From NCBI GenBank assembly GCA_031366985.1, contig JANLPE010000073.1:57701-121700 (forward strand): DNA of 64,000 nucleotides. The letters are read 5' to 3'. Under the pieces are notes generated by a model. The model was not told where the DNA came from. It worked only from the letters and a program-made list of their open reading frames with translations, and did not search any database. The number at the start of each line of letters is the position of its first letter. Position 1 is the first letter of the stretch. This document shows, one piece after another, positions 3,540 through 38,444 of the stretch. Both the position numbers and the translations under genes were made by a program. The DNA comes from Gemmatimonadaceae bacterium. Lineage in GTDB: Bacteria; Gemmatimonadota; Gemmatimonadetes; Gemmatimonadales; Gemmatimonadaceae.

Positions 3540-4886
3540 ATGCGCGCACTCGTTCTGAACGGAGCGCTCGGGCCCGACCCACTGGTCGATGAGCTGACGG
3601 CGCGAATCGCGCGGGACCTCGAGGCGTACGACGACGCCTCGGTGGATATCGAAGTGCTGCGCGACGCGCACGTCGCGCACTGCCAGGGCTGCTTCGACTG
3701 TTGGACGAAGACACCCGGCATCTGCAAGATCAACGACGCCGGGCGGGATCTGGCGCGTGACTTTGTCGCGAGCGATGTGGTCGTACTCGTGACGCCCGTG
3801 CAATTCGGCGGCTACTCGTCCGAGTGCAAAAAGATGCTCGATCGCACGCTCGGCATGCTGCTGCCGTTCTTCCGGCGTATCGACGGTGAAGTGCATCACG
3901 CGCCGCGATATGCGCATCCGCCGGCGTTTGGCGTCGTCGGTGTGGTCGACCGACGCAATGCGGCATTGGAGCAGACGCTGCGCGCTCTGGTGACACGCAA
4001 CGCCATCAACTTCGCGGCGCCGGCGCACGCGGTCGGGATCGTCGAGCGCGCGAACGCCGCACACCCGGCGTTCGGCGAGTGTGATACGGTCATCGCGACG
4101 CTCTGCGGTGCACGATCGAACGAGCACGTACCGATCGTCGATGTAGACTCACTGCTACCCGCGATGCCGCTATCCGGCGCGGGCGCCGCACCAACCGACG
4201 TGCTCTTACTCATCGGGAGCGCCAAACCGCGCGGCACGAGCACGTCCGAGGCGCTCGGCATGCATCTGCTCGAGCGACTGGCGCTGCGCGGTGTGATCGG
4301 CGAGTTGCGCCATCTACAAAAGGAGGCGCATTCGCCCGAGGCGTTGCGCGATCTCGTGGCCGCCGTGCGTGCGCACAGCCTGGTGATCATCTCCTCGCCG
4401 GTGTACATCGACGCACTGCCCGCGCTGGTCACGCGCGCGCTCGAGGCGATCGCCGCCGACCGCGCCCAGGATCTGGTGCGGACACCACTCACGATCGCGA
4501 TGCTGCTCAACTGCGGCTTCCCGGAGTCGCGTCATGCCGCCGTCGCCCGCACGATCGGCGCGCTCTTCGCGCGTGCCACCGGTGCACGGTGGGCGGGCGC
4601 GCTGCAACTGGGCGGTGGTGGTGTGATCGATGGACGGCCCTTCGATGTCACGGGAAAGGTCGTCGCGCATCTGCCGGCGTTGCTTGATGAAGCCGCGGCC
4701 GCGCTAGCCGTCGGCCGCGCGATTCCGCCGTCGGTGCAGGAACGCTTTGCGCAACCGCTCATGGGTACGTCGCTGTACATGGCGGCCGGCGACGCGGGCT
4801 GGCTCTGGACCGCGGCGCACGAAGGCGCACTGACCAAGATGTGGCAACGTCCCGTCAATGCTGAGGGGACGTTGGCGGCCGGTTAG
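3540..4886 (+). CDS. Tandem flavodoxin-fold protein: iron-sulfur flavoprotein (Isf)-like domain + NAD(P)H-dependent FMN reductase-like domain
   Basis: N-domain CQGCFDCWTKTPGIC (Cx2Cx2Cx7C) and TPVQFGGYSSECKKMLDR; second domain LIGSAKPRGTSTS, SPVYIDALP, LNCGFPE. Confidence 0.8.
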   Translation: MRALVLNGALGPDPLVDELTARIARDLEAYDDASVDIEVLRDAHVAHCQGCFDCWTKTPGICKINDAGRDLARDFVASDVVVLVTPVQFGGYSSECKKMLDRTLGMLLPFFRRIDGEVHHAPRYAHPPAFGVVGVVDRRNAALEQTLRALVTRNAINFAAPAHAVGIVERANAAHPAFGECDTVIATLCGARSNEHVPIVDVDSLLPAMPLSGAGAAPTDVLLLIGSAKPRGTSTSEALGMHLLERLALRGVIGELRHLQKEAHSPEALRDLVAAVRAHSLVIISSPVYIDALPALVTRALEAIAADRAQDLVRTPLTIAMLLNCGFPESRHAAVARTIGALFARATGARWAGALQLGGGGVIDGRPFDVTGKVVAHLPALLDEAAAALAVGRAIPPSVQERFAQPLMGTSLYMAAGDAGWLWTAAHEGALTKMWQRPVNAEGTLAAG

Positions 4887-4919: not shown

Positions 4920-7121
4920 TTAGATGAACGCCGCCGCACGCGTCAGCAGTTCGTCCAGCCCTGGCTCCTTCAGATTGCGCGGCTTGCCAGGGTGAATGAT
5001 CGAGACTTGGCAACTCTCGGCCGCGTCGACGAGCTGCGCGTAGGTGCCGGCGTTGAGGTCGGCGATGTACGCCTGCTTATTCGCGTTATACGCGAACATC
5101 CTGTTGTTAAGCTGCGTGCACTCATTACAGGTCGAGCAACGCGCGGTCTCGATGTACGCCTCGTCGGATGTGCGCTCGGGCGCGACATCCGGGACGTCTC
5201 TCGTGGCAGCGGACGCGGCCGGCGGCATCCCCGCCGTAGTCGACGACGATGTGTCGGCGCGCGCCGAGTCGAGGGTCGTCTCCGCCTGCGTGCGCGCCTC
5301 CCACGCCTTGCGCTCGCGCGCCAGCAACTGTTCTGCATGGGAGTTATGCACGCCACCCAGCTCCTGCAGGCTGTGCCACATCTCGCGGCAGCGACGGGCC
5401 TCGCGCAGCAGGCGCTCGTCGACGAGCACGCGCTGAAGCGCGTCCTTGTCATCGACCATCAGCAGGGCGGGTACCCGATCCGGCAGCCCCTTCCTTTTGC
5501 AGGTGAGCGCCAGATCAACCGGGATCATGGTGCCGTTCCATCGCGGGCGCGGCACGCGTGCCAGGTGCTTCGCGTAGCGGTGGTCGCTCGCCACGAAGTC
5601 TACGTACGTGAAGGCGACGTCTTCGACGACGCGCTGCGACTGCAGATCCGCGTACTCGACGTGCTGAATCGGCCAGTCGAGCTCCACTTGCGCGTTCGCA
5701 TCGAGACTGAAGCGCGACGCCCAATTCGCACCCGCCGACGGGTCGTAGCTGAAGGCGGGAAAGGCGCGCGACTCCATCGCGGCGGCCGACACCAGGTACG
5801 GTGGCAATCCCGACGATGCACCAGACGCGCCGGAGAAGACGCTGAACAGCGCCGTGCCCCGATACGATAAACCGCGCACGATCTGATCGCGGAATCGATA
5901 CAGATTCGAGCTGCTGGACTGCAACACGTACACCTCGTTGAGTCCCATCGCCATGCTGGCGATCTGTCGGATTCGCATCCCTACGCTCAGGTTTCCCGCG
6001 CTGCTCGGCGCCTCTTCGAGAATGTCGTCGATCTGCAACATGACCTTGATCGGCAGTCCCGACGTCAGCAGTTCCATCAGCTGCGCGTGCTCGTCGGCGT
6101 GCAACAGCGCAGCGTTGATGCAGACGAGGTAGTCTGGGAATGGAGCGAGCTCATGCGGGTCGAGTCCATTGGCTCCGAACAGCGCGAACATCGCATCATG
6201 CTTGTCCTCGCGGTATTGCCCCTCGATCTCGAGTTCTGCGACGGCGATCGCTCCGGCCAGCGCGATCTGCGCTGCGCTCCGCTCGTGATAGGCGCGCAGC
6301 GCGTCCGCGCACGAGGTGAATACGAATGGATAGGGTGTCGTGCCAGCGTCCTTCGTGTTCGATGCGTAAAATCGTTGTGACTGCAGCGCCGCAATCAGCT
6401 GCGTAAGTCGTTGTCGTCGCGCCTCGGGAAGCCGATCTTGCGGCAGGGCGGTCGTCAGCAGTAACGACAACGCGCCGAAGTCGAACGCGCTGCCGAAGCC
6501 CACGCCGACGGATGCTTGGAGATGAGCGGCACTGCGGCCCTCGAGCGAGCGCTCGTGATCGGCGCGAAGGATATTCGAGAGACCCAACAACAGTGTGTCG
6601 ATCGCGGCGCGAAATGCCGCGCCCTTGTCCTCTTGCACGCGCTGCCACGTATGCAACAGCAGTCGCGACGGGAGCTGGAAGTCGCAATCGACGAGGTCGC
6701 CGTTCAAGGCGATTGCCGTGCGTATCCGGGCGGCGCTCGCCATGAAGGCGTCGTCCGCCGTTGGTAAGAGATGCGTGATGGCGAGGTCCCAGAGCGTCGA
6801 GAACGATCCCGTCGCGCCCCCCACGACCAGCGTACGTATCGTCTGCTCGACACGTAGCATCTGCTTTCGCATCCGTTCGCCGTCCGTGCCGAGCGCCGCG
6901 GCGGTCAGCGCGTCATCGATCACGCTCGAAAGCGAGCGCACAAAGGGTGCCGCGCCGTTCGTCGTGAGCACGAGCGGAAAATCGTACCGCAACGCGGAGA
7001 GATCGCGATACCTGGCAAACAGTGCCGGGCGCAGACCGACTCCTTCGACGCTGTCGAGACGATCGCTGGTGCGACGACCGGTCAGAAAGAAGACAACATG
7101 CTCATGGAGATCCGAGTTCAT
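4920..7121 (-). CDS. Large protein: degenerate PFOR beta(TPP)-domain-like region + C-terminal single-cluster ferredoxin
   Basis: ATG at 7121, 4 nt after the korB stop. LPIKVML / VYVLQSS / GLSYRGTALFSVF / AAAMESRAFPAFSYDP resembles the PFOR C-terminal domain. C-terminus CSTCNEC...ESCQVSIIHPG. Confidence 0.7.
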   Translation of the reverse strand: MNSDLHEHVVFFLTGRRTSDRLDSVEGVGLRPALFARYRDLSALRYDFPLVLTTNGAAPFVRSLSSVIDDALTAAALGTDGERMRKQMLRVEQTIRTLVVGGATGSFSTLWDLAITHLLPTADDAFMASAARIRTAIALNGDLVDCDFQLPSRLLLHTWQRVQEDKGAAFRAAIDTLLLGLSNILRADHERSLEGRSAAHLQASVGVGFGSAFDFGALSLLLTTALPQDRLPEARRQRLTQLIAALQSQRFYASNTKDAGTTPYPFVFTSCADALRAYHERSAAQIALAGAIAVAELEIEGQYREDKHDAMFALFGANGLDPHELAPFPDYLVCINAALLHADEHAQLMELLTSGLPIKVMLQIDDILEEAPSSAGNLSVGMRIRQIASMAMGLNEVYVLQSSSSNLYRFRDQIVRGLSYRGTALFSVFSGASGASSGLPPYLVSAAAMESRAFPAFSYDPSAGANWASRFSLDANAQVELDWPIQHVEYADLQSQRVVEDVAFTYVDFVASDHRYAKHLARVPRPRWNGTMIPVDLALTCKRKGLPDRVPALLMVDDKDALQRVLVDERLLREARRCREMWHSLQELGGVHNSHAEQLLARERKAWEARTQAETTLDSARADTSSSTTAGMPPAASAATRDVPDVAPERTSDEAYIETARCSTCNECTQLNNRMFAYNANKQAYIADLNAGTYAQLVDAAESCQVSIIHPGKPRNLKEPGLDELLTRAAAFI

Positions 7122-7125
7122 GTGT

Positions 7126-8136
7126 CTATCCGCCCACGCTACTGCCGGCCATCGCGACACGGTCGCCGTGTCCCTGCGGCCAGACGGTGAACTTGTCGAG
7201 TTCGGTATTCAATCCGATGCGCGTCTGGTCGATGGTGCGCAACACGGTCGAGCGGCGCAGATCCTCGTAGCACGGCACCTCGGCATTACGATAGAGGATG
7301 CCGACCGGGATCGCGTCATCGCCCGTCGCCAGTTCGCGGGCGCGATGGATGTTCGAGGGGTCGTGCTCGAGCTGGTTCGTGTAGATGCGCGAAAGACCGG
7401 CGCTATACGGTAGTCCGTCCGCGTGGTGCAGAAGCCGCACTTTCGTCGGGTCCTGCATGAACGGGTTCAATGAGTTCGGTAACCATTCCGGGCATCGTTG
7501 CACGATTCGCACGAATGACAATCCCTTGTGATGGTACGCGGCCGACACAACGTCGTAGAGCATCTCCGGTATCCAATCGACCGCTTGTGCGACGAACGAC
7601 ACGTTTTGCACGCCCAGTGTCACCGAGAGGGGATTGAGCGCCTCGAGATAGCTGCCGCGCGGTGTCGTGTTGCTCTTGGTGCCGATCGGTGACGTCGGCG
7701 ATGCCTGCTTCTTCGTCAGGCCGTAGATCTGATTGTCGTGCAGGAAGACGGTGATGTTCATGTTGTAGCGGAGCGCGTGAATCCAGTGCGCCGTACCGAT
7801 GCTGCAGCAGTCACCGTCTCCGGTGTTCACGAACACCGTCAGGTCTGGCCGCGCCATCTTGACGCCTTCGGCCACCGGCAGGGCTCGGCCATGAATGCCA
7901 TGAAATCCGTACGTCTTCATGTAATGCGGGAACCGGCTAGAACAGCCGATGCCTGACACGAACACCGTCTTTTCGGGGCGCAGTCCTTCATCCCGACACA
8001 GCCGCTGCACGGCGGCGAGGATCGCGTTGTCGCCGCATCCGGTGCACCATCGGGGGACACCACTCTGATAGTCCTCCAGCTGATGGTGCTCGTCGAACAT
8101 CTGCAACAGGCAGTGGGTCGCGGTCGCGGTGGTCAT
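7126..8136 (-). CDS. korB: 2-oxoacid:ferredoxin oxidoreductase beta subunit (TPP-binding)
   Basis: WCTGCG, SGIGCS, HGIHGR, GDGDCC, NQIYGLTK, SPT motifs. ATG at 8136 overlaps the alpha subunit TGA. Substrate not determinable from sequence. Confidence 0.92.
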   Translation of the reverse strand: MTTATATHCLLQMFDEHHQLEDYQSGVPRWCTGCGDNAILAAVQRLCRDEGLRPEKTVFVSGIGCSSRFPHYMKTYGFHGIHGRALPVAEGVKMARPDLTVFVNTGDGDCCSIGTAHWIHALRYNMNITVFLHDNQIYGLTKKQASPTSPIGTKSNTTPRGSYLEALNPLSVTLGVQNVSFVAQAVDWIPEMLYDVVSAAYHHKGLSFVRIVQRCPEWLPNSLNPFMQDPTKVRLLHHADGLPYSAGLSRIYTNQLEHDPSNIHRARELATGDDAIPVGILYRNAEVPCYEDLRRSTVLRTIDQTRIGLNTELDKFTVWPQGHGDRVAMAGSSVGG

Positions 8137-10070
8137 CAGCGGCTCTCCTGAGTCGACGCCGAACCCTGAAGCTTGTCCAGCAGCACGCGGCGAATGGTGC
8201 GTGGCTTGATCGGCTGACCGCGGACCTGACTCCAGCAATCCACATCGACGAGGTATCGTGAGCGCAGCAGGATCGCGACGGAGGAATATCGGCGATTCGA
8301 TTCGTCGATGATCGTGTCGTCCGGGCGATCGCTCCAATTGCTCTCGATCGTCATGACGTGCGTGAAGCCGCGCATAATCTCTTTGATGCCCGGCGGCAGC
8401 GGCTGCAGGAACTGCAAGTGCATCGATGAGACCTTGCGGCCGTCCTCACGCAGCAACGCGACGGCTTCCTCGATGGCGCCTTTCGTGCTGCCCCAGCCGA
8501 CCACGAGCAAGTCACCGGTTGGGTCGCCAAAGACGGGCGGCGGCGACAGCGTCTTCTGTAGCGCCGCGAGCTTGAGACTGCGAAAACGCAGCGTCTGCTC
8601 GTTGATGTCCGGATCGTACGCCACGTGGCTATCGCGGTCGTGCGCGAGGCCGGTCAGTGTGTGCATGCCGCCCGGCTGCCCAGGGATGAAGCGTCGCGCC
8701 AGACCCGTGGTCTCATCCCAGTCGTAGGGCTTGGCACCCGGCGGGACGGCGCTCTGGTCGATAGGAGGCGCGACCCATGAATCATTGAAGTTCGGCCGTG
8801 GGAACGGTTGCTGCGACGTGGCGAGGGACGCATCCGACAGCACGATGACCACCATGTTGAACGTCTCGGCGATCTTGCGCGCGGTGATGATCGAGTAAAA
8901 ACATTCTTCAATCGTGCCCGGCGCCATCACGACTTTCGGTGCATCACCATGGCTACCGAAGATGGCGGTCATGAGATCACCCTGTTCCATCTTCGTCGGC
9001 TGGCCCGTGCTCGGACCACCGCGCTGCACGTTCACCACGACGAGCGGGATTTCGGCCATTACCGCGAGGCCGATGGCTTCCTGTTTGAGCGAGAAGCCCG
9101 GGCCCGATGTGATGGTGATCGTGCACTTGCTGGCATACGACGCACCGATGGCGAAGGCGCAGGCGGCGATTTCGTCTTCGGCCTGGTGGACGATCCCGCC
9201 GACGTTCTCGAATACCTCGGAGAGGTAATGCGACGCCGACGTGGCCGGTGTGATCGGATACATCGCGCACACTTCCATGCCGGAGGCGAGCACACCGAGC
9301 GCAAGCGATGTGTTGCCGTTGACGACGATCTGCGGAACTGTCGATCGCGTCGCGGGAATTACGTATGAGAAGTCGAGATTCGACTTGGCCCACGCATGCC
9401 CAGCGTCGAGCAGTTGGATGTTGGCATCGACGATGCGTTGATCCTTCTTGCCGAAGGTCGTGATGATCTGGCCGCGTGCGAGCCCGAGATCCAGGCTGTA
9501 GAGCTGACAGAGCATGCCAAGCGCAAACATGTTCTTACCTTTACGCACATCGGCGACGTGCGTCCGGCACTCCCGTTCCATCGGCACTTCGTACACGCGA
9601 TAGCCCGCATCGACAAGCCGGTCGTGTGTTTCGATGTATGACGCGACGACCGACGTGTCAGGATGTGTGCGCCACATGTCCTCGAGCAAAATGATGCAAT
9701 CCGCTTTGAGCTCCTTCGCGCGAACACGTCCGAGCAGCACCTGTTCGTTGAACGCGATGACCAGATCCGTCTCGTCGCCACCGTTGGAGATCGGCCCCGC
9801 GCCGATGCGGATGCGATTCCCGCTTGCGCCGGCCACGCTGCGCGCCGGCGGGCGGATCTCGGCGGGAATGATTTCTGTCGTCCACACCCCGTTACCCATC
9901 TGCGCCGCGATCGTACCCAATGATTGCCCGCACTTCTGCGCCCCCTCGCCGGAATCGCTGATGATCTCGACGATATGTTCTTCGAGCCGGATTGGCACGT
10001 TTCGCGGGCCCAGCGCCTGCGTGTCGTTCACGAGATCGTCAACCGCTCGCTGTGTAATCACGTCAGTCAT
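8136..10070 (-). CDS. korA: 2-oxoacid:ferredoxin oxidoreductase alpha subunit (fused gamma-alpha)
   Basis: DSGEGAQ gamma domain, YPITPA, QAEDEIAA, TSGPGFSLKQE, QRGGPSTG. ATG at 10070 overlaps the nfnB stop (ATGA). Confidence 0.93.
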   Translation of the reverse strand: MTDVITQRAVDDLVNDTQALGPRNVPIRLEEHIVEIISDSGEGAQKCGQSLGTIAAQMGNGVWTTEIIPAEIRPPARSVAGASGNRIRIGAGPISNGGDETDLVIAFNEQVLLGRVRAKELKADCIILLEDMWRTHPDTSVVASYIETHDRLVDAGYRVYEVPMERECRTHVADVRKGKNMFALGMLCQLYSLDLGLARGQIITTFGKKDQRIVDANIQLLDAGHAWAKSNLDFSYVIPATRSTVPQIVVNGNTSLALGVLASGMEVCAMYPITPATSASHYLSEVFENVGGIVHQAEDEIAACAFAIGASYASKCTITITSGPGFSLKQEAIGLAVMAEIPLVVVNVQRGGPSTGQPTKMEQGDLMTAIFGSHGDAPKVVMAPGTIEECFYSIITARKIAETFNMVVIVLSDASLATSQQPFPRPNFNDSWVAPPIDQSAVPPGAKPYDWDETTGLARRFIPGQPGGMHTLTGLAHDRDSHVAYDPDINEQTLRFRSLKLAALQKTLSPPPVFGDPTGDLLVVGWGSTKGAIEEAVALLREDGRKVSSMHLQFLQPLPPGIKEIMRGFTHVMTIESNWSDRPDDTIIDESNRRYSSVAILLRSRYLVDVDCWSQVRGQPIKPRTIRRVLLDKLQGSASTQESR

Positions 10071-11608
10071 GGTCGTTCCAAGCCGCTGGTGAGATCGCGT
10101 CGGTTGCTCACGTGCACGCGCGCGAAGTTCCGTTCTTTGATGTCGATGCCGAAGAGTGTGTCGCTGTCGGCCGCGCGATCGGGCGCGTACGGTAGCCACG
10201 GATCGCGGATGCCGAGATATGCTTTCATGCCACGCGCGGCCTTGCGCCCTGCACCCATCGCCTCGATCACCGTCGCGGCGCCGGTCACGATGTCACCACC
10301 AGCGAAGACGCCGGCGACCGACGTAGCGCACTGCTCGTAGGTATTGATATATCCGCGCGCGTTGAGCGTCAGCTTGGACGTCTGGCCCATGATCGGGTTC
10401 GCATTCGTGCCGATCGCGTATACGACCACGTCCGCCTCGAACTCGAACTCACTGCCCGCGACCGGTACCGGGCGGCGACGTCCCGACCCATCCGGTTCGC
10501 TGAGTTCCATGCGCACGCAGCGTATGCCGCGCACGCTACCATGGCCGTCATCGAGCACCGCCACGGGCGCCGTGAGGAAGTGAAATGCGACGCCTTCCTG
10601 TTCGGCATGGTGCAATTCTTCCATGCGGGCCGGTGCTTCGGTGCGCGAACGCCGATAGAGGCAATACACCTTCTCGGCACCGATCCTGACGGCAACGCGC
10701 ATCGCGTCCATCGCGGTGTTCCCCGCGCCGACAACAGCAACGTGTTTGCCGATCGGCATTGGCGTGTCGAAGTCCGGATATTCACGCGCGCGCATCAGGT
10801 TGCAGCGCGTCAGCAGTTCGTTGGCGGACAGCACGCCGTTGAGCGAATCGCCGGGAATGTTGAGCATCGTCGGATAGCCCGCGCCCACGCCGACAAAGAC
10901 CGCGTCGAAGCCCATCTCCTCGATCATCTGTTCGATCGTGAAGAGACGGCCGACCAACGTGTTGCATTCGAACTTCACACCGAACGATTTGAGCTTCTCG
11001 ATCTCCGCGTCGATGACCGCGTTGGGCAGACGGAAATCCGGGATGCCATAACGGAGTACGCCGCCCGGCAGATGGAACGCTTCGTACACGGTGACATCGC
11101 ACCCCGCCTTTGCCATGTCCGCCGCGCAGGCCATACCGGCCGGGCCGGAGCCGACGACTCCAACCTTGAATTGATTCGGCTCGATGTACGGGATGTTGAT
11201 CCAATGCTCCGTGATCGCACTGTCACCGACAAAGCGCTCGAGACGCCCAATTGCCACGGCCTGCAGCGTGTCACCGACCGTACACACGCCTTCGCACTGC
11301 GTCTCCTGTGGACAGACGCGTCCGCAGATCGAGGGCAGCACGTTGGTGTCCGTGATGACGTCGTAGGCGCCTCGGACGTTCTTCTCGGAGAGTCTCTGAA
11401 TGAACGCGGGAATGTTGATGCCGACCGGACAGCCGGAGATGCACGGCTGGTCCGGGCACATCAGGCAGCGCTCCGCCTCGCGCATCGCTTCTTCTAGGCT
11501 ATAGCCTCGCGCTACTTCATCGAAGTTGTGTGAACGCACGCCTGGATCCTGCTCGCGCATCGGCGTGCGTTCCTGTGGAATCGCGCGAATTGTCTTCTTC
11601 TTCGCCAT
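10067..11608 (-). CDS. nfnB: NfnB/SudA-like flavoprotein (NADPH-dependent glutamate synthase small-chain homolog; two Fe-S clusters, FAD)
   Basis: CLMCPDQPCISGCP, CGRVCPQETQCEGVC, GSGPAG, LRYGIPDFRL, GAGNTAMD, AGGDIVTGAATV. Lies directly downstream of an NfnA-like gene; no gltB nearby. Confidence 0.88.
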   Translation of the reverse strand: MAKKKTIRAIPQERTPMREQDPGVRSHNFDEVARGYSLEEAMREAERCLMCPDQPCISGCPVGINIPAFIQRLSEKNVRGAYDVITDTNVLPSICGRVCPQETQCEGVCTVGDTLQAVAIGRLERFVGDSAITEHWINIPYIEPNQFKVGVVGSGPAGMACAADMAKAGCDVTVYEAFHLPGGVLRYGIPDFRLPNAVIDAEIEKLKSFGVKFECNTLVGRLFTIEQMIEEMGFDAVFVGVGAGYPTMLNIPGDSLNGVLSANELLTRCNLMRAREYPDFDTPMPIGKHVAVVGAGNTAMDAMRVAVRIGAEKVYCLYRRSRTEAPARMEELHHAEQEGVAFHFLTAPVAVLDDGHGSVRGIRCVRMELSEPDGSGRRRPVPVAGSEFEFEADVVVYAIGTNANPIMGQTSKLTLNARGYINTYEQCATSVAGVFAGGDIVTGAATVIEAMGAGRKAARGMKAYLGIRDPWLPYAPDRAADSDTLFGIDIKERNFARVHVSNRRDLTSGLERP

Positions 11609-11611
11609 CGC

Positions 11612-12559
11612 TTAGCCCCCGAGCGTCATTTCCGAGAAGTCCGGCCAATCGAGCAACTCGATTTGTGGTGCGGCAGCGAGCGCGAGTTCATGCAGCGCGC
11701 TCGGTCCAACGGTCTTCGTCATGCGGCAGCTTTCCGAAAACTTCTCGGCGGCGGTTGTTTCCGTCTGCGTATAGCGCTGGAGGCGCAGCATGAGGTCGTC
11801 GAAGTCGACCAGATGTCCATCGAAATCGGGGCCATCGACGCAGCCGAACTTCACCTGACCGCCCACCTTCACCCGGCAGCCACCGCACATGCCTGTGCCG
11901 TCCACCATGATCGGATTGACGCTGACCATCGTCTTGATGCCGTAGGGTCGCGTGGCATCGGCGCTGGCTTTCATCATGATCGGCGGTCCGATCGCGATGA
12001 CTTCGTCGATGTCGGTGTGCGTCTCGAGCGCGACGCGGATGCCGTCGGTGATCATCCCTTTCATGCCTGCCGAGCCGTCATTGGTGCAGAGGATCAGCTC
12101 GTCGCAGCAGGCGCGGAATTTGTCTTCCCAGAAGACCAGATCTTTGTTGCGGAAGCCGAGCACGGCGATGACGTAGGCGCCCTGTTCCTTGAAGCCGCGC
12201 GCTTGCGGAAAGATCGGCGCGACGCCCAGCCCGCCGCCGACGCACACGACCTTCTTGGCGTGACTGACTGCGCTGGGAATGCCCATCGGGCCCACCATCG
12301 CGTACAGCGACGTGCCGACCTGACACTCGACCTGCATCTGCTTGGTCGTCTTGCCAACCGCTTGGATGACCAGCGAGATCGTGCCGCGCTCGCGATTATA
12401 GTCTGCGATCGTGAGTGGCGTGCGCTCGCCGTGCTCGTGCAGCATGACAATGACGAATTGTCCGGGCTTGGCGGCCATCGCCATCAACGGATGGCGCACC
12501 TCGAGGAGGAACGTGACGTCCGAGAAGTCTTCCCGGGCAACGATCTCGAAGTTTGGCAT
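11612..12559 (-). CDS. nfnA: NfnA/SudB-like FAD/NAD-binding subunit with [2Fe-2S] (PyrK-like)
   Basis: PGQFVIV, ERTPLTIAD, VGPMG, VGGGLG, MVDGTGMCGGCRV...CVDGPDFD (Asp + 3 Cys ligands). GGAAGG RBS before ATG 12559. Confidence 0.9.
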   Translation of the reverse strand: MPNFEIVAREDFSDVTFLLEVRHPLMAMAAKPGQFVIVMLHEHGERTPLTIADYNRERGTISLVIQAVGKTTKQMQVECQVGTSLYAMVGPMGIPSAVSHAKKVVCVGGGLGVAPIFPQARGFKEQGAYVIAVLGFRNKDLVFWEDKFRACCDELILCTNDGSAGMKGMITDGIRVALETHTDIDEVIAIGPPIMMKASADATRPYGIKTMVSVNPIMVDGTGMCGGCRVKVGGQVKFGCVDGPDFDGHLVDFDDLMLRLQRYTQTETTAAEKFSESCRMTKTVGPSALHELALAAAPQIELLDWPDFSEMTLGG

Positions 12560-12795
12560 GACAGTCACCTTCCGGGGGGGGCGGTTGGAGGACTGGGGCG
12601 ATGGTTGGTGCGGCGAGTACTGGAGTCCTAGCTAGTGATATGCGATTGCCACGGGCGTAGGGGATTCCTTGCCCTCATGTCGGATTTACCAAGCTCCGTG
12701 GTCAGATGCCTCGCGCCGGGCCTGCCTTCATCCGATAATTCCCACCCGATACTCGTTTTTCTCGCCTTGCCACGATCATAGGGGAAACTTCAGCG

Positions 12796-13215
12796 ATGAA
12801 CCGCGTATTACTCTCGCTTCACCTGCTCGGCCTGGCGCTCGGCCTTTCGGTGCCCTTCTCGAACATCGTCATGCAATCGCTGATCGCCAAAGCGGCCCCA
12901 GCCGAACAGCCCGTTCTCGGTCGATTCCCGCCGGCGATGATTCGCGTCGGCGACATCGGTCTCGTGCTACTCTGGATCACCGGACCGATCCTGCTGTTCA
13001 CGAAGCACAATGGCTTCGCTGGCCTGTCACCGGCATTCCACGTCAAGCTGACGGCTGTCGTCGTGCTCACGCTCGGCGTGGGGTTCATTCACGGCAACAT
13101 GAAGAAGGCGGCCACCGGTGATGCTGCGGCGATCTCGCGCGTTCAGACGACGGCGAAAGTCACGCTGCTCGCCGCGCTGACCGCGCTGGTCGGCGCCGTG
13201 ATTACGTTCAACTGA
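12796..13215 (+). CDS. Small 4-TM membrane protein with intramembrane His residues (DUF2269/CopD/HemJ-like)
   Basis: Four hydrophobic segments; SLHLL, FHVKL, FIHG. Confidence 0.6.
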   Translation: MNRVLLSLHLLGLALGLSVPFSNIVMQSLIAKAAPAEQPVLGRFPPAMIRVGDIGLVLLWITGPILLFTKHNGFAGLSPAFHVKLTAVVVLTLGVGFIHGNMKKAATGDAAAISRVQTTAKVTLLAALTALVGAVITFN

Positions 13216-13261
13216 TTAGGATCAGGAGTGCGCTGAGTCTTTCGTCTTCCCATTTCTGAAC

Positions 13262-13723
13262 GTGATGTTCCCCTTCGGCTGGACGCACTACCTGCTCGGC
13301 GGCCTCTGCATCGGCCTCGGCGTGTCGTTGCTGTACGTGCTTACCGGCCTCGTCGGCGGCATGAGCTCCGTATATTCCTCGACGTGGTCGTATGCAGTCG
13401 AGGCGCCGTTCTTTCACGCGGCGCGACTTGTGAAGAGTCGCGAGTGGCGCCTGTCGTACTCGACCGGTCTCATCCTCGGCGCGTCGATATGGTGGCTGCT
13501 GTTTGGACACGGCACGCCCATCGCGGTTTCGATCCCGTGGTGGCAACTGCTGGGCGGCGGCGTGCTGGTGGGCTACGGCGCGCGCCTGTCTCGAGGATGC
13601 ACATCTGGCCATGGCATCTGTGGACTCGCCTCGTTGCAGCTGCCGTCGCTGGCGGCTGTGCTCACGTTCATGGCGACGGCGTTCATCACGGCGAACGTCG
13701 TGCTGCGACTCGGAGGCCACTGA
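13262..13723 (+). CDS. YeeE/YedE family sulfur-compound transport protein (half 1)
   Basis: GGLCIG, GLVGGMS, LVGYGARLSRGCTSGHGICG. Confidence 0.9.
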   Translation: MMFPFGWTHYLLGGLCIGLGVSLLYVLTGLVGGMSSVYSSTWSYAVEAPFFHAARLVKSREWRLSYSTGLILGASIWWLLFGHGTPIAVSIPWWQLLGGGVLVGYGARLSRGCTSGHGICGLASLQLPSLAAVLTFMATAFITANVVLRLGGH

Positions 13724-13724
13724 C

Positions 13725-14198
13725 TTGTCCACGTCGACGTCCTCCGAGGTGAAGCGTCCGCGTGCTCAGCGCCTCGCGGCACTCGCGGCCGGCATCCTGT
13801 TCGGCTTCGGGCTCGCGCTCTCAACGATGATTCGCCCCGAGATCGTGCTCGGGTTCCTGCGTGTGCAGGATATGGGACTGATGCTTGTCCTCGGTGGCGC
13901 CGTCGTCGTGACGTTCTTCGCGTATCGCTACGCGCCGCGCCTGATGAAACATCCGTTGCTCGGCGGCGTGTTCGGTTTGCACGAAGCGACGATGGAGCGC
14001 TCGACGATCATCGGTGCCGCGATCTTCGGCATCGGGTGGGGGATCACGGGTGTCTGTCCGGGTCCGGCGATCGCGGGACTCGGCGCGGGCATGTGGCAGC
14101 TTGGTTTCGCCATTGCCGGCATCGCGATCGGCGCGTTGCTGCAGGGCGTGACGACGCGCATGCCGGTCGACACGCACGTGCCGACCGAGAACGACTGA
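13725..14198 (+). CDS. YeeE/YedE family protein (half 2)
   Basis: GGAGG RBS + TTG at 13725; GILFGFGLALSTM, IFGIGWGITGVCPGPA. Confidence 0.88.
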   Translation: MSTSTSSEVKRPRAQRLAALAAGILFGFGLALSTMIRPEIVLGFLRVQDMGLMLVLGGAVVVTFFAYRYAPRLMKHPLLGGVFGLHEATMERSTIIGAAIFGIGWGITGVCPGPAIAGLGAGMWQLGFAIAGIAIGALLQGVTTRMPVDTHVPTEND

Positions 14199-14336: not shown

Positions 14337-14534
14337 ATGAATCGTTCTGTTGCTGCATTGCTGTCCGCCGTCGCGATCTTGACCGCCTGCAGCGATCCGC
14401 CAACGGCTGTGCCCAGTCTGACTGCGCGTGCCGATCGCGAGCAGTCGACGCCGGTCGGCTTCCTCACATCGCAACCGGCGACATCATCCCAGGCACAACA
14501 GCAGCGTGGATGCCGACAGAGGTCGTGTCAATAG
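14337..14534 (+). pseudogene. Truncated lipoprotein N-terminus interrupted by IS sequence
   Basis: MNRSVAALLSAVAILTAC lipobox. The frame ends inside an IS-end-like sequence. Confidence 0.5.
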
Positions 14535-14544
14535 GTGTGTAAAT
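14519..14544. mobile_element. IS256-family-like terminal inverted repeat (isolated)
   Basis: GAGGTCGTGTCAATAGGTGTGTAAAT; its reverse complement ATTTACACACCTATTGACACGACCTC resembles the TTACACA..TTGACAC ends I recall for IS256 elements. No partner end or transposase seen. Confidence 0.35.
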
Positions 14545-15521
14545 AGGTTTCAAGCGGCGACACGTTTTCGGTGGCAGAAGCAGGCGCTCGAGCATCTGAC
14601 GGCCGCGCTGCAAGACGGCCGCACCCAGCGTGTGGAGTCCCAATCCGTCAGCGCCGATCGCGCCCGCATCGCCGTGCTCGAAGCGACGATCGCGAAGAAG
14701 GATCGCGTCATTGCGGAAGTGTCCGAAGAGTACCTCGACATGAAAAAAGTATGGGGGCCCATGACCCCGCACTGGGTCCCGCCCGATCGCCGCAACGAGG
14801 TCGTGGACTGCGTCACGTCGCTCAGCACGCGCACCGCGGTGCAGACACCACACGGCCCGGTGCCCCGCGATCACTGGCGCACGCGCGCGGAACGCGACGG
14901 CATTCTGCGCGTTCACGAAAGGCATCCCATGGACGGCTATCGTCGCCTGACCTACCTGTTGCTGGACGCGGGTGACGTCGCAGTCAGTCCCACCTCCGGG
15001 TATCGCGTGCTCAAGGACGCGGGACGTCTGGATCGCTGGACGCGCACGCCATCGAAAAAGGGCACGGGCTTCGACCAGCCGACGCAGGCGCACCAACACT
15101 GGCACATCGATTTCACGTACCTCAACATCGCGGGGACGTGCTCCTATCGGTGCGCCATTCTCAACGGCTGGTCGCGCTACCTCGTGCACTGGGAACTCCG
15201 CGAGTCGATGACGACGCAGGACGTCACGACGATTTTGCAGCGGGCCCGGGAGAAGTTTCCCGACGCGTGCCCGCGCATGATTTCGGATAACGGCCCGCAG
15301 TTTATCGCCGCCTGCACAGTGCGATCGGCTACATCACGCCCGCTGACCCGCTCGCCGGACGGTCCGACGCCATTTGGGCGACCCGCGAGGCGCGCCTCGA
15401 AGCGGCGAGGGGCGCCCGGCGTCTCGCGCATCATCCGATCGCCGCGGAACATCACGTATTGCCCGTCCCGTTATTCCATTGTCCATCCACCCACGTGTCA
15501 CATTCACGCTGAACCAGGACA
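14545..15521 (+). mobile_element. IS3-family element remnant (orfA 3' part + internally deleted orfB, right end retained)
   Basis: OrfA-like IAKKDRVIAEVSEEYL, A6G slippery site at 14743-14749, OrfB-like GYRRLTYLLLD, WHIDFTYL, SRYLVHWEL, SDNGPQFIA. Then a jump in another frame to RLHSAIGYITPAD. Ends ...TCACGCTGAACCAGGACA (terminal CA at 15521). Confidence 0.9.
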
Positions 15522-15825
15522 GCCCATCTGTCGTTCAATTGCGCCACCGCCTGCAACGGCAACTGCACCCGCGTGGGCGCGCGCATCATCGTGCGCCGCA
15601 CCTGATTGAGTTCCAGTGCGCGATACAAATGGTAGATGCGCTTGTGGTTCCACCGATGCCCGAGCTTGCGCAGGCAATTGCGATACTTCCAGAAACTCAG
15701 CGTCCCTCCTGCGCGATCATGACGTCAAGGCCGCGATGATTGGCGCATCGACGTCGTCCATCACGTTCAGAGGCCGATATTACGCGGTGTGCGTGCGCGG
15801 GACTGAAGCGACCTGCATGTGAGCC
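15522..15825 (-). mobile_element. Second IS3-family (IS407-group-like) orfB fragment
   Basis: Minus strand: YRPLNVMDDVDAPIIAALT, then FWKYRNCLRKLGHRWNHKRIYHLYRALELNQVRR...QLPLQAVAQLNDRWA, cut by the right end of the first element. Confidence 0.8.
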
Positions 15826-15840
15826 CGCCGGCGTTTACGC

Positions 15841-17361
15841 CTACACCAAAATCGGCAACCGTCGGATCTTCTCCTGCCACTCGCGCGGCCCTGTCTCGTG
15901 CACATTGCTGCCCGCCGCATCAACTGCGACCGTGACCGGCATGTCGTGCACATCGAACTCGTAGATCGCTTCCATACCGAGGTCCGCGAACGCGACAACG
16001 CGTGACGAGCGGATCGCCTTCGACACCAAGTATGCGGCGCCGCCGACGGCCATCAGATATGCGGCTTTGTGTTTGCGAATCGCCTCGAGTCCTGTCGGTC
16101 CACGCTCGGCCTTGCCAATCATCGCAATCAGGCCGGTCTTCGCAAGCATCATCTCGGTGAACTTGTCCATGCGCGTCGCCGTCGTCGGACCGGCCGGACC
16201 CACCGCTTCATCGCGCACGGGATCAACCGGACCGACATAATAGATCATTCGGTTCGTGAAGTCGACGCCGGCAGGGAGTCCTTCGCCGCTCGCGAACAAG
16301 TCGGCGATGCGCTTATGCGCCGCGTCGCGACCGGTAAGCAACTTGCCGTTCAACAGCAAACGATCACCGGCCTTCCACGACTGCACGACGTCCGGCGTGA
16401 GCGTGTTGAGGTCGACGTGCTTCGCGTTCACATCGGGGCGCCACGTGACATCGGGCCAGTCGGCCAGATTGGGCGTCGGCAATTCCGCGGCGCCGCTGCC
16501 GTCGAGCGTGAAATGCGCGTGACGTGTGGCCGCGCAGTTCGGGATCATTGCGATTGGCTTGGACGCGGCGTGCGTCGGGAAGTCAAAGATCTTGACGTCG
16601 AGCACGGTCGACAGACCGCCAAGTCCCTGCGCGCCGATGCCGAGTGCATTGACCTTGTCGCACAGTTCGATGCGCAACTCTTCGATCGTGTTCTGTGGGC
16701 CGCGCGCCTTGAGCTGGGCCATGTCGATGTGCTCCATGAGCGATTCCTTCGCCATGAGCATCGCCTTTTCGGCGGTGCCGCCGATGCCGATGCCGAGCAT
16801 GCCCGGTGGGCACCAACCGGCGCCCATCAGCGGCACCGTCTTCATGACCCAGTCGACGATCGAGTCGCTCGGATTGAGCATCGCAAACTTCGACTTGTTC
16901 TCCGACCCGCCGCCCTTCGCCGCGAGCTTCACCTCGACCGTGTTGCCGGGCACGATTTCATAGTGCACGACCGCCGGCGTGTTGTCTTTCGTGTTTTTGC
17001 GCGTGAACGCCGGATCCGACACGATCGAGGCGCGCAACACGTTGTCCGGGAGCAAGTACGCCTGTCGAACGCCTTCGTTCACCATCTCCTGCACGGACAT
17101 GGTCGCATCCCACCGGACGTCCATGCCAACTTTCAAAAAGACCACCACGATGCCCGTATCCTGACAAATCGGGCGATGGCCTTCGGCGCACATGCGCGAA
17201 TTCGTGAGGATCTGCGCGATGGCGTCCTTTGCCGCGGGACCTTGCTCCTTCTCGTACGCATCGGCAAGCGCGTGGATGTAATCCAGCGGATGGAAGTACG
17301 AGATGTGCTGGAGCGCGTCCGCGATGGACTGGATGAAGTCGGCTTGTTTGATGGTGGTCAT
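15841..17361 (-). CDS. fumA: Class I (Fe-S) fumarate hydratase
   Basis: RPICQDTG, KGGGSENKS, GAGWCPPG, MIPNCAATRH, RDAAHKR, GPTTATRMD, GKAERG. Confidence 0.93.
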   Translation of the reverse strand: MTTIKQADFIQSIADALQHISYFHPLDYIHALADAYEKEQGPAAKDAIAQILTNSRMCAEGHRPICQDTGIVVVFLKVGMDVRWDATMSVQEMVNEGVRQAYLLPDNVLRASIVSDPAFTRKNTKDNTPAVVHYEIVPGNTVEVKLAAKGGGSENKSKFAMLNPSDSIVDWVMKTVPLMGAGWCPPGMLGIGIGGTAEKAMLMAKESLMEHIDMAQLKARGPQNTIEELRIELCDKVNALGIGAQGLGGLSTVLDVKIFDFPTHAASKPIAMIPNCAATRHAHFTLDGSGAAELPTPNLADWPDVTWRPDVNAKHVDLNTLTPDVVQSWKAGDRLLLNGKLLTGRDAAHKRIADLFASGEGLPAGVDFTNRMIYYVGPVDPVRDEAVGPAGPTTATRMDKFTEMMLAKTGLIAMIGKAERGPTGLEAIRKHKAAYLMAVGGAAYLVSKAIRSSRVVAFADLGMEAIYEFDVHDMPVTVAVDAAGSNVHETGPREWQEKIRRLPILV

Positions 17362-17526
17362 GGCGGAAAATAGGCGCGGTGAAGCAGGCTCGCCAATTCG
17401 ATGACGGTCATGCGCCGCGCCGATGTGCATGCCGAAGCGGTCCACCCCGCCATAACGTCCGATTTCGAGATCTCGTGCGACACGTGCAGGATCTGCTCGA
17501 GGCCAAAACGGCACCGGTATGTCCCC

Positions 17527-38388: not shown

Positions 38389-38444
38389 CGATGGAGACAC
38401 AGTAAATAGGATCACGACGCCTCGAAGAAGAGCGATCCGACGGA

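Follow-up and report, generated by a model that had tools for sequence, protein, structure and literature searches.

The locus and its five genes

The DNA analyzed here (the window) is a stretch of 64,000 nt from a Gemmatimonadaceae bacterium (assembly GCA_031366985.1, contig JANLPE010000073.1, positions 57,701 to 121,700), and our subject is an operon of five co-directional open reading frames (ORFs) on its minus strand, running from position 12559 to 4920. Genes 1 and 2 encode the subunits of an Nfn-type transhydrogenase, NfnA and NfnB, and genes 3 and 4 those of a 2-oxoacid:ferredoxin oxidoreductase (OFOR), KorA and KorB. The fifth (gene 5) encodes a degenerate relative of pyruvate:ferredoxin oxidoreductase (PFOR) that bears a ferredoxin domain, the only ferredoxin in the operon. 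With moderate confidence, we interpret the five products as a self-contained redox module that would form a closed path from 2-oxoglutarate/succinyl-CoA through a tethered ferredoxin to NADH and NADPH, and back. The features are as follows (TPP, thiamine pyrophosphate; AF2, AlphaFold2).

11612..12559, minus strand: nfnA, Nfn small subunit (FAD/NAD(H)-binding, PyrK-like, [2Fe-2S]), 315 aa; family NF004862
10067..11608, minus strand: nfnB, Nfn large subunit (two [4Fe-4S], FAD, NADPH site), 513 aa; family TIGR01316
8136..10070, minus strand: korA, OFOR alpha subunit, domains III-I-II (gamma-alpha fusion), 644 aa; Pfam, TIGR03710
7126..8136, minus strand: korB, OFOR beta subunit (TPP-binding domain VI, single [4Fe-4S]), 336 aa; Pfam
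4920..7121, minus strand: gene 5, predicted PFOR-derived pseudoenzyme with a C-terminal ferredoxin domain, 733 aa; BLASTP, AF2, Foldseek
5322..6146, minus strand: gene 5 residues ~326-600, degenerate TPP-binding (PP, domain VI-like) core; family profile, alignment
5172..5288, minus strand: gene 5 residues ~612-650, flexible low-complexity linker; AF2 confidence (pLDDT), composition
4986..5159, minus strand: gene 5 residues 655-712, single-[4Fe-4S] ferredoxin domain (C662, C665, C668, C704); Fer4_13, profile, Foldseek
12560..12795, no strand: divergent intergenic (promoter) region of 236 nt with a 19-nt direct repeat, between the nfnA start and the membrane-protein ORF 12796-13215 (plus strand)

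Because the G+C content of the window is about 63%, long spurious ORFs are common in it. Still, the coordinates, names, order and common direction of the five genes given by the initial annotation agree with the family matches and with direct reading of the sequence. The junctions, read from the reverse strand, are also identical to those described there: TAA-gcg-ATG between nfnA and nfnB (3-nt gap), ATGA between nfnB and korA (4-nt overlap), TGATG between korA and korB (1-nt overlap), and TAG-acac-ATG between korB and gene 5 (4-nt gap). No terminator-like sites were found inside the operon on the coding strand.

NfnA and NfnB

NfnA matches family NF004862 with 373 bits (cut-off 220), and its best solved relative is the small subunit of NfnI from P. 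furiosus (5jca_S, 323 bits). With the motif NPIMVDGTGMCGGCRV...FGCVDGPDFD at its cluster site, NfnA shares the Asp+3Cys [2Fe-2S] pattern of PfNfnI and TmNfnA, and the segment NPIMVDGTGMCGGCRVKVGGQVKFGCVDGPDFD aligns with PfNfnI-S and TmNfnA column for column. The C-terminal tail of about 35 residues is not conserved among orthologues.

NfnB matches family TIGR01316 with 569 bits (cut-off 472). The initial annotation had named, as the outcome that would speak against it, an NfnB-like protein that groups with true GltD and has GltB as its partner. The observed similarities are of the Nfn type: NfnB scores 552 bits against NfnB from T. maritima (4ylf_B), 476 bits against the PfNfnI large subunit (5jca_L) and 458 bits against Pf NfnII (Xfn), while true GltD (Azospirillum, 6s6s_G) and dihydropyrimidine dehydrogenase yield 287 and 177 bits, respectively. 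Moreover, nfnA is adjacent, and there is no GltB-sized or GltB-like ORF within the 64-kb window. The motifs CLMCPDQPCISGCP, CGRVCPQETQCEGVC, GSGPAG and GAGNTAMD...YRRS are conserved in the alignment with TmNfnB and PfNfnI-L, so NfnB retains the motifs for two [4Fe-4S] clusters and the Rossmann motifs for FAD and NADPH. A C-terminal extension of about 30 residues (approximately 472-500) is partly conserved in the orthologues from related operons. Hence, genes 1 and 2 are assigned as genuine NfnA and NfnB.

KorA and KorB

In KorA, the Pfam domains are POR (residues 41-225), POR_N (259-424) and PFOR_II (520-590), and the match to TIGR03710 is 505 bits (cut-off 483). Its best solved relative is the alpha subunit of the 2-oxoglutarate:ferredoxin oxidoreductase (OGOR) of Magnetococcus (6n2n_A, 255 bits), and it carries the YPITP motif (MYPITPATS). 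KorB contains TPP_enzyme_C and PFO_beta_C and scores 240 bits against TIGR02177, slightly below the cut-off of 262. The cluster cysteines C31, C34, C65 and C215 and the TPP motif GDGD...N (NTGDGD...DNQIYGLT) align with those of the beta subunit of the Sulfolobus tokodaii enzyme (StOFOR). Neither protein has a Fer4 domain or domain V according to Pfam. By sequence, KorAB is thus a two-subunit OFOR (alpha, III-I-II; beta, VI) that has a single [4Fe-4S] cluster and lacks a ferredoxin domain of its own. As domain V is lacking, an external ferredoxin should be required, as in StOFOR and the Magnetococcus marinus enzyme (MmOGOR) (PMC5020499).

The best beta-subunit match of KorB is the broad-range StOFOR (180 bits vs. 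165 bits for MmOGOR beta). Lys49 of the StOFOR beta subunit is the specificity residue required for 2-oxoglutarate turnover (PMC5020499); in the alignment, this position is occupied by Arg68 in KorB, and Arg is also found here in MmOGOR beta and in OorB from H. pylori. These data are consistent with 2-oxoglutarate as the most likely substrate, and do not amount to proof.

Gene 5 is a relic of a long PFOR

The initial annotation had described gene 5 as a ferredoxin fusion. The C-terminal ferredoxin domain is indeed present; still, this description is incomplete, since about 650 of the 733 residues constitute a degenerate PFOR body. The domain matches Fer4_13 from Pfam at residues 658-710 with 24.0 bits, at the border of the cut-off (24.5) that relatives of gene 5 exceed, while no Pfam or NCBIfam family covers residues 1-650. 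The ancestry of the body surfaced only via an intermediary and via structure. The intermediary, P0274, is an intact long PFOR of 1,652 aa with POR_N, PFOR_II, POR, Fer4 and TPP_enzyme_C, and with its own C-terminal Fer4_13 domain; gene 5 matches it by BLASTP along residues 137-732 (E = 9e-63), with a second match at residues 11-99. The profile of the gene 5 family also matches residues 979-1119 of the Moorella PFOR (6cin, E = 0.008) and ferredoxin I of D. africanus (1dax, E = 9e-6).

The AF2 model built from 74 diverse sequences has a pLDDT of 91.3. Its top 18 Foldseek matches in PDB are all PFORs (probability 1.0), followed by beta subunits of OOR, OFOR and OGOR, and the C-terminal domain superimposes on D. 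africanus ferredoxin I (1fxr) with TM 0.85 and a root-mean-square deviation (rmsd) of 1.2 Å. The sole segment with pLDDT below 50 (residues 626-646) falls into the linker, which is rich in Ala, Pro, Ser and Thr and varies in length between homologues. A first model, built from 16 close homologues, had a pLDDT of 53; its Foldseek matches to AAA ATPases (E > 0.05) are meaningless and were discarded. Comparison of the gene 5 profile with a narrow profile of KorB orthologues from the operon by hhalign gave no match (probability 0.8%), and BLASTP of the long variant P0232 against KorA from the window was not significant.

Alignment with intact long PFORs demonstrates what has been lost. The GDG-X(25-30)-N TPP/Mg-binding motif, GGDGAMYDIG...VVDTQVYSNTGGQ in the intact proteins, is replaced by VCINAALLHAD...LQIDDILEE (LQIDDILEEAPSS) in gene 5; the cluster motif CLGCGEK corresponds to LVDCDFQ in the gene 5 family; the region of domain V has no Cys motifs, and domains I-III are absent. 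Among the 74 diverse homologues no cysteine outside the ferredoxin domain is invariant, while inside it C662, C668 and C704 never vary and C665 is conserved to at least 90%. Conservation of the body is strong in places, with residues 390-480 and 570-600 being 81-96% identical among orthologues and Arg45, Arg235, Arg238 and Arg452 invariant. Since the TPP/Mg motif, the cluster ligands and domains I-III are missing, gene 5 cannot be a PFOR enzyme. Judging from the alignments and the model, it is the C-terminal half of a long PFOR that has lost TPP binding and all three PFOR clusters and has kept the tethered ferredoxin domain.

Relatives of gene 5 are numerous. A collection clustered at 90% identity contains more than 2,600 matches, all labelled 'hypothetical' or 'ferredoxin'; at 50% identity there are 2,067 clusters with E ≤ 1e-3, 849 of them with E ≤ 1e-30, and relatives are present in 391 species-level genomes. 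Some are 1,240-1,460 aa long and have degenerate PFOR domains (PFOR_II, POR) at the N-terminus. A profile search (alignment A2) of a collection of 5.8 billion proteins retrieved mostly the same Betaproteobacterial group.

Conservation of the five-gene operon

The operon conservation was surveyed, as proposed in the initial annotation, by tblastn of the five window proteins against 82 loci around relatives of gene 5. In all 76 loci with upstream DNA, korB lies directly upstream of gene 5, and all 44 loci that extend far enough have nfnA-nfnB-korA-korB-gene 5 in the same order, though these counts are not independent, as the loci were picked for their similarity to gene 5 and many of them are close relatives of one another. 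The spacers have medians of about 22-78 nt (start codons being rough), with the gene order constant. No further conserved neighbours were found beside the operon in 40 fully flanked loci, and therefore no external electron acceptor is evident. A ferredoxin-balancing module, as suggested in the initial annotation, was a reasonable proposal and is much strengthened by this strict synteny.

The Betaproteobacterial hosts include Rhodoferax, Sulfuritalea, Ramlibacter (with the isolate R. lithotrophicus RBP-1, locus L074, a cultured host of the module), Propionivibrio and Comamonadaceae. The operon is also found in Gemmatimonas and other Gemmatimonadaceae, in Acidobacteriota (Vicinamibacteria), and in one metagenome-assembled genome (MAG) each of Planctomycetota and Alphaproteobacteria. 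Across phyla, NfnA, NfnB, KorA and KorB are 72-89% identical and gene 5 is 53-66% identical, the best KorA and KorB values (87-89%) coming from Gemmatimonas and Gemmatimonadaceae MAGs. This pattern of identity suggests horizontal spread combined with strong constraint.

Several neighbours recur in subsets of loci. A gene for an intracellular poly(3-hydroxybutyrate) (PHB) depolymerase (PHB_depo_C) directly follows gene 5 in L042 (8109-9431) and seven other Betaproteobacterial loci, and a 199-aa RnfB-like Fe-S protein is encoded about 1.6 kb downstream of gene 5 in L041 (12838-13437) and, again, seven other Betaproteobacterial loci. In about ten Comamonadaceae loci, another set of OFOR genes is located downstream of the operon, at a distance of 2-6 kb (L071, 13812-18411, minus strand; L034, 14194-16038). 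It encodes KorB-like and KorA-like proteins of 351 and 614 aa, respectively, and a GltD-like flavoprotein of 566 aa with two Fer4 motifs. In size, these proteins agree with the three-subunit 2-oxoglutarate:NADP+ oxidoreductase of Azoarcus evansii.

Rnf-linked relatives

The pair of korAB and a gene-5-like gene also occurs in another context. Loci of the Calditrichaeota type have the order korA, korB, a 1460-aa gene-5-like gene, an rnfB-like gene, an intact long PFOR of 1577 aa, rnfC and rnfD, where the sequence ends; their KorA and KorB are 64-66% identical to those of the window. A third clade has a korB fragment followed by an 832-aa relative of gene 5 and an rnfB-like gene. The ferredoxin-bearing PFOR relic thus appears to travel with this KorAB clade, the presumed re-oxidiser of ferredoxin being either Nfn (soluble) or Rnf (membrane-bound). 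As the ferredoxin-oxidising partner swaps while korAB and the gene-5-like gene stay, gene 5 would be the redox partner of KorAB and the operon would encode a single electron path. This swap is the strongest comparative argument for gene 5 as the partner of KorAB.

The long PFORs themselves (1500-1700 aa, uncharacterised) are encoded in rnf operons, have intact TPP and Fe-S motifs, and bear an extra C-terminal Fer4_13 domain. P0274 is flanked by an rnfB-like gene on one side and by several Rnf-type genes on the other (RnfC, RnfD, an FMN-binding protein and two subunits of the Rnf-Nqr family); in L083 (8993-13726) and L084 (13250-17986) the long PFOR gene also has an rnfB-like gene upstream, and rnfC and rnfD end both loci. 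Among the long PFORs from named genera, those from Roseospira (P0277) and Thiocystis (P0278) are without the terminal Fer4_13 domain. The location of long PFORs inside rnf operons suggests a pyruvate-to-Rnf electron module.

Upstream region and expression

In 27 of 41 related loci, mostly from Betaproteobacteria, the 300 nt preceding nfnA contain an FNR-type box (TTGAT-N4-(A/G)TCAA, up to one mismatch being allowed), compared with 0.3% in shuffled controls. This points to low-oxygen induction of the operon in many Betaproteobacteria, which fits oxygen-sensitive Fe-S/TPP-radical enzymes. The loci that do not have the box are those of the window, Acidobacteriota, Planctomycetota and Alphaproteobacteria, and several from Betaproteobacteria, including Propionivibrio (L079, L082) and R. 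lithotrophicus. Two sites with two mismatches about 650 nt upstream (13198-13225) lie beyond the divergent gene and were not counted.

No sigma-70-like promoter was found in the intergenic region of the window. This region contains a 19-nt direct repeat at 12646-12664 and 12767-12785, with the copies 121 nt apart (on the plus strand, TTGCCACGGGCGTAGGGGA and TTGCCACGATCATAGGGGA), which matches neither the sigma-54 nor the FNR consensus.

Apart from a weaker match in one soil metagenome, the window itself was detected in sediment metagenomes alone, most of which are labelled as freshwater; RNA runs carrying the window or the Sulfuritalea locus were not found. For the copy from Ca. Propionivibrio dominans, contigs from wastewater and activated-sludge metatranscriptomes, with 95-99% identity, reach into each of the five genes, though at low depth, and one of them spans korA-korB. 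In this copy (locus L079), the korB-gene 5 spacer is unusually long (254 nt). The depth of contigs at 8821-9121 is 140-240x in two of four runs and 10-33x in the other two, the operon elsewhere being mostly below 10x, and many of the spacer contigs continue into unrelated sequence; this jump could be due to an element that is repeated or mobile, or to a small RNA of high abundance.

Proposed mechanism

In the proposed module, KorAB would oxidise a 2-oxoacid, most likely 2-oxoglutarate, to the acyl-CoA (succinyl-CoA) and CO2, and its surface [4Fe-4S] cluster would hand low-potential electrons to the tethered ferredoxin domain of gene 5. The dead PFOR body, a descendant of the PFOR portion that lies against domains I-III and contains the internal electron wire, probably docks the ferredoxin domain to the enzymes. 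NfnAB would then re-oxidise this domain, join its electrons with those of NADH and reduce two NADP+. The net reaction would be

2-oxoglutarate + CoA + NADH + 2 NADP+ ⇌ succinyl-CoA + CO2 + NAD+ + 2 NADPH

and is reversible in principle. The five products would thus be coupled both physically and functionally, connecting an oxygen-sensitive step of the tricarboxylic acid (TCA) cycle straight with the pools of pyridine nucleotides, with no need for a pool of free ferredoxin; the module is probably turned on at low oxygen in Betaproteobacteria.

A bolder version, which we put forward only tentatively and hold to be rather doubtful, is that the five proteins assemble into one stable supercomplex, a 2-oxoglutarate:NAD(P)+ oxidoreductase that would constitute a new class of flavin-based bifurcating/confurcating enzymes. 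The pseudo-PFOR would serve as its scaffold, with the [4Fe-4S] domain swinging between the KorB cluster and the distal NfnB cluster, so that 2-oxoglutarate decarboxylation would drive NADH-to-NADPH transhydrogenation (or, in reverse, NADPH would power CO2 fixation) with no free ferredoxin. Such a complex would have spread horizontally among facultative anaerobes of at least five phyla.

Several observations weigh against the proposed module. The tight gene overlaps are particular to the window genome and are not kept in related loci, and the synteny counts are subject to the sampling of loci described above. As regards the substrate, no substrate-specific NCBIfam equivalog matches KorA or KorB at its cut-off, and the sole pointer to 2-oxoglutarate is Arg68 of KorB, shared with two 2-oxoglutarate enzymes. 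Bifurcation is absent in some Nfn homologues (PMC9973337, PMC6405883). Finally, no FNR-type box with at most one mismatch precedes the window operon, and the RNA evidence is weak, consisting of low-depth contigs from libraries whose RNA status is partly guessed.

Alternative explanations

The path could run in the opposite direction, with NfnAB bifurcating electrons from NADPH to reduce the tethered ferredoxin and NAD+, and KorAB carboxylating succinyl-CoA to 2-oxoglutarate. This would serve anaplerotic or reductive-TCA fixation of CO2 without any other low-potential donor, and corresponds to the second option of the initial annotation, which had taken the class I fumarase gene 3 kb away as a sign of anaerobic or reductive TCA capacity. 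Both enzymes are reversible in principle, the nearest solved relative of KorA is the reverse-TCA OGOR of Magnetococcus, and AadN from R. palustris is an Nfn homologue able to reduce ferredoxin in a facultative proteobacterium (PMC9973337). However, an integrase gene and divergent membrane-protein genes lie between the operon and the fumarase gene (15841-17514, minus strand), and of 85 loci just one other has a fumarase close to the module, so its proximity does not bear out the reductive TCA reading. Citrate lyase and fumarate reductase, looked for as markers of this capacity, are not encoded within the 64-kb window, nor are any TCA enzymes other than the fumarase; the remaining genes (peptidases, a TonB/SusD pair, DUF1552/DUF1592 proteins and similar) have no reductive-TCA markers and are organotroph-like. 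We therefore regard the opposite physiological direction as unlikely.

The assignment of bifurcation is another point at which the proposed module might fail. If the Nfn homologue does not bifurcate, NfnAB would be a ferredoxin:NADP+ reductase and the whole a plain 2-oxoglutarate:NADP+ (or NAD+) oxidoreductase, functionally like the KGOR of A. evansii. The latter is reported to be a three-subunit enzyme in which an OFOR is coupled to a GltD-like NADPH flavoprotein. The presence of a gene set with the expected sizes near the module in Comamonadaceae, and the caution of reviews that Nfn homologues may not bifurcate, agree with this possibility. At the same time, NfnA is kept in every locus with its FAD/NAD fold and [2Fe-2S] motif, NfnB is nearer to the bifurcating TmNfnB and PfNfnI than to Pf NfnII/Xfn by the scores given above, and genomes with the three-subunit type keep the module too, which argues for a different function. 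A non-bifurcating enzyme is thus improbable in our estimate.

The gene 5 product may also play a different role from that of an internal carrier between KorAB and NfnAB. It could deliver low-potential electrons to an acceptor encoded elsewhere (benzoyl-CoA reductase, nitrogenase or other reductase), with KorAB and NfnAB as alternative reducers of its ferredoxin: KorAB from Thauera and the Nfn-like AadN from R. palustris each feed ferredoxin for benzoyl-CoA reductase (PMC9973337), and the Sulfuritalea locus adjoins PaaA/PaaC-like, enoyl-CoA hydratase, thioesterase and thiolase genes. Yet no acceptor gene is conserved beside the module in the 40 fully flanked loci, the ferredoxin is tethered to a body of 650 residues rather than free, and korAB and aadN interchange in R. 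palustris strains, while Nfn and korAB always co-occur here; such a generator of electrons has, in our view, little probability. Even less credible is a gene 5 product that carries no electrons at all, acting instead as a subunit for regulation or protection (for example, a sensor of oxygen or redox state, or a KorAB chaperone) or having a new activity in the old TPP pocket. The large body with its strongly conserved segments would suit such a role, and the four invariant arginines could bind an anionic ligand, but the four ferredoxin cysteines are the most conserved cysteines of the family, the domain fits a true ferredoxin at 1.2 Å rmsd, and the operon has no other carrier for KorAB, which needs one.

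Relation to known systems

Each enzyme type of the proposed module is known. As in the NfnAB of pattern A, there are two adjacent genes, the Asp+3Cys [2Fe-2S] motif, both [4Fe-4S] motifs, and the FAD and NADPH motifs. The differences are that an OFOR and a dedicated ferredoxin protein share a fixed operon with the Nfn genes, that NfnB has a partly conserved C-terminal extension, and that the hosts belong to facultative or aerobic-type lineages. Nfn is rare in such lineages, and a link to oxoacid enzymes is absent from the text of the 2019 Nfn review (PMC6405883). AadN from R. palustris is similar in being an Nfn homologue of a facultative proteobacterium tied to a dedicated ferredoxin pathway, but it is a single fused protein that replaces korAB, whereas the module has separate NfnA and NfnB, always with korAB (PMC9973337).

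KorAB resembles the OGOR of M. marinus (6N2N), StOFOR (5B46/5B48) and KorAB from Thauera aromatica in its alpha III-I-II and beta VI organization, in YPITP, GDG...N and the four Cys for one [4Fe-4S] cluster, and in having no domain V and an external acceptor. These enzymes use free ferredoxins, while the KorAB clade of the window is always followed by the PFOR-derived ferredoxin protein. Gene 5, in turn, shares the fold and sequence homology of domains IV-VII with PFORs (Moorella, 6CIN; Desulfovibrio africanus, 1B0P) and, like long PFORs such as P0274, has an additional single-cluster ferredoxin domain at the C-terminus; it differs from them in lacking domains I-III, the TPP/Mg motif and the ligands of the three PFOR clusters (the proximal one of domain VI and two of domain V).

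The hard-wired link between an OFOR and NADP+ has precedents as well. KorABC from A. evansii, described by Ebenau-Jehle, Boll and Fuchs in 2003, reportedly has exactly three subunits, namely OFOR alpha and beta and one GltD-like flavoprotein of about 63 kDa with Fe-S clusters of its own. It would thus also combine an OFOR with a NADPH flavoprotein of the GltD family, reducing NADP+ by oxidation of 2-oxoglutarate in denitrifying Betaproteobacteria, but without NfnA and the PFOR-like subunit of the five-gene module. The eukaryotic pyruvate:NADP+ oxidoreductase (PNO) of Euglena and Cryptosporidium is one polypeptide comprised of PFOR and a cytochrome-P450-reductase-like FMN/FAD domain, pyruvate-specific and non-bifurcating. 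The principle is the same, as a 2-oxoacid:acceptor oxidoreductase is hard-wired to a NADPH-forming flavoprotein, bypassing free ferredoxin; the differences are the single polypeptide and the flavoprotein part, which is unrelated to that of the module.

In the literature on Nfn with Kor, OGOR, Rhodoferax or Accumulibacter no account of the operon was found, though most subscription journals were outside the coverage and a prior description is possible. With the same coverage, no description of a pseudo-PFOR with a tethered ferredoxin, or of its association with Rnf, was found.

Other genes of the window

Divergently from the operon, three membrane-protein ORFs are located at 12796-14198 (plus strand): a 139-aa protein without family, a Sulf_transp (YeeE/YedE-like) half, and DUF6691; a Sulf_transp and DUF6691 pair is also found near the long PFOR P0274. 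They are followed by a gene for an rve-family integrase (IS-type transposase) at 14428-15609 (plus strand), between the neighbourhood of the operon and the fumarase gene. On the other side, a gene convergent with gene 5 (3540-4886, plus strand) encodes a protein of 448 aa, whose first 100 residues or so are FMN_red/flavodoxin-like, the other ~340 having no family. A 9-bp inverted repeat at about 4845-4874 was noted in the 33-nt gap between these two genes, overlapping the 3' end of the 448-aa gene.

Farther away, there are two adjacent D-Ala-D-Ala-ligase-like ATP-grasp genes (47594-49012 and 49051-50382, both on the minus strand), the former being fused to a C-terminal SET (lysine methyltransferase-type) domain, an unusual combination. 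A 934-aa ORF at 20566-23370 (plus strand) has no Pfam match at E ≤ 1e-5, and a 618-aa ankyrin-repeat protein is encoded at 36559-38415 (minus strand). The synteny of an S9 peptidase with a Gemmatimonadaceae MAG involves only 38% identity and is thus a weak taxonomic indication. No Rfam families or tRNAs were found in the window.

Biological significance

OFORs and Nfn are usually viewed as separate enzymes of strict anaerobes that communicate via a free ferredoxin pool. If the proposed module is correct, it would demonstrate how electrons of about -500 mV can be handled without a general ferredoxin economy in facultative or mostly aerobic lineages, such as Gemmatimonadota, Acidobacteriota, Rhodoferax, Sulfuritalea, Ramlibacter and Propionivibrio. 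It would provide these bacteria with soluble, membrane-independent formation of NADPH from a TCA-cycle step at low oxygen, or with NADPH-driven carboxylation. Gene 5 defines a large uncharacterised family and, by its losses and its retained ferredoxin domain, would clearly exemplify the conversion of an enzyme to a carrier or scaffold devoid of catalysis.

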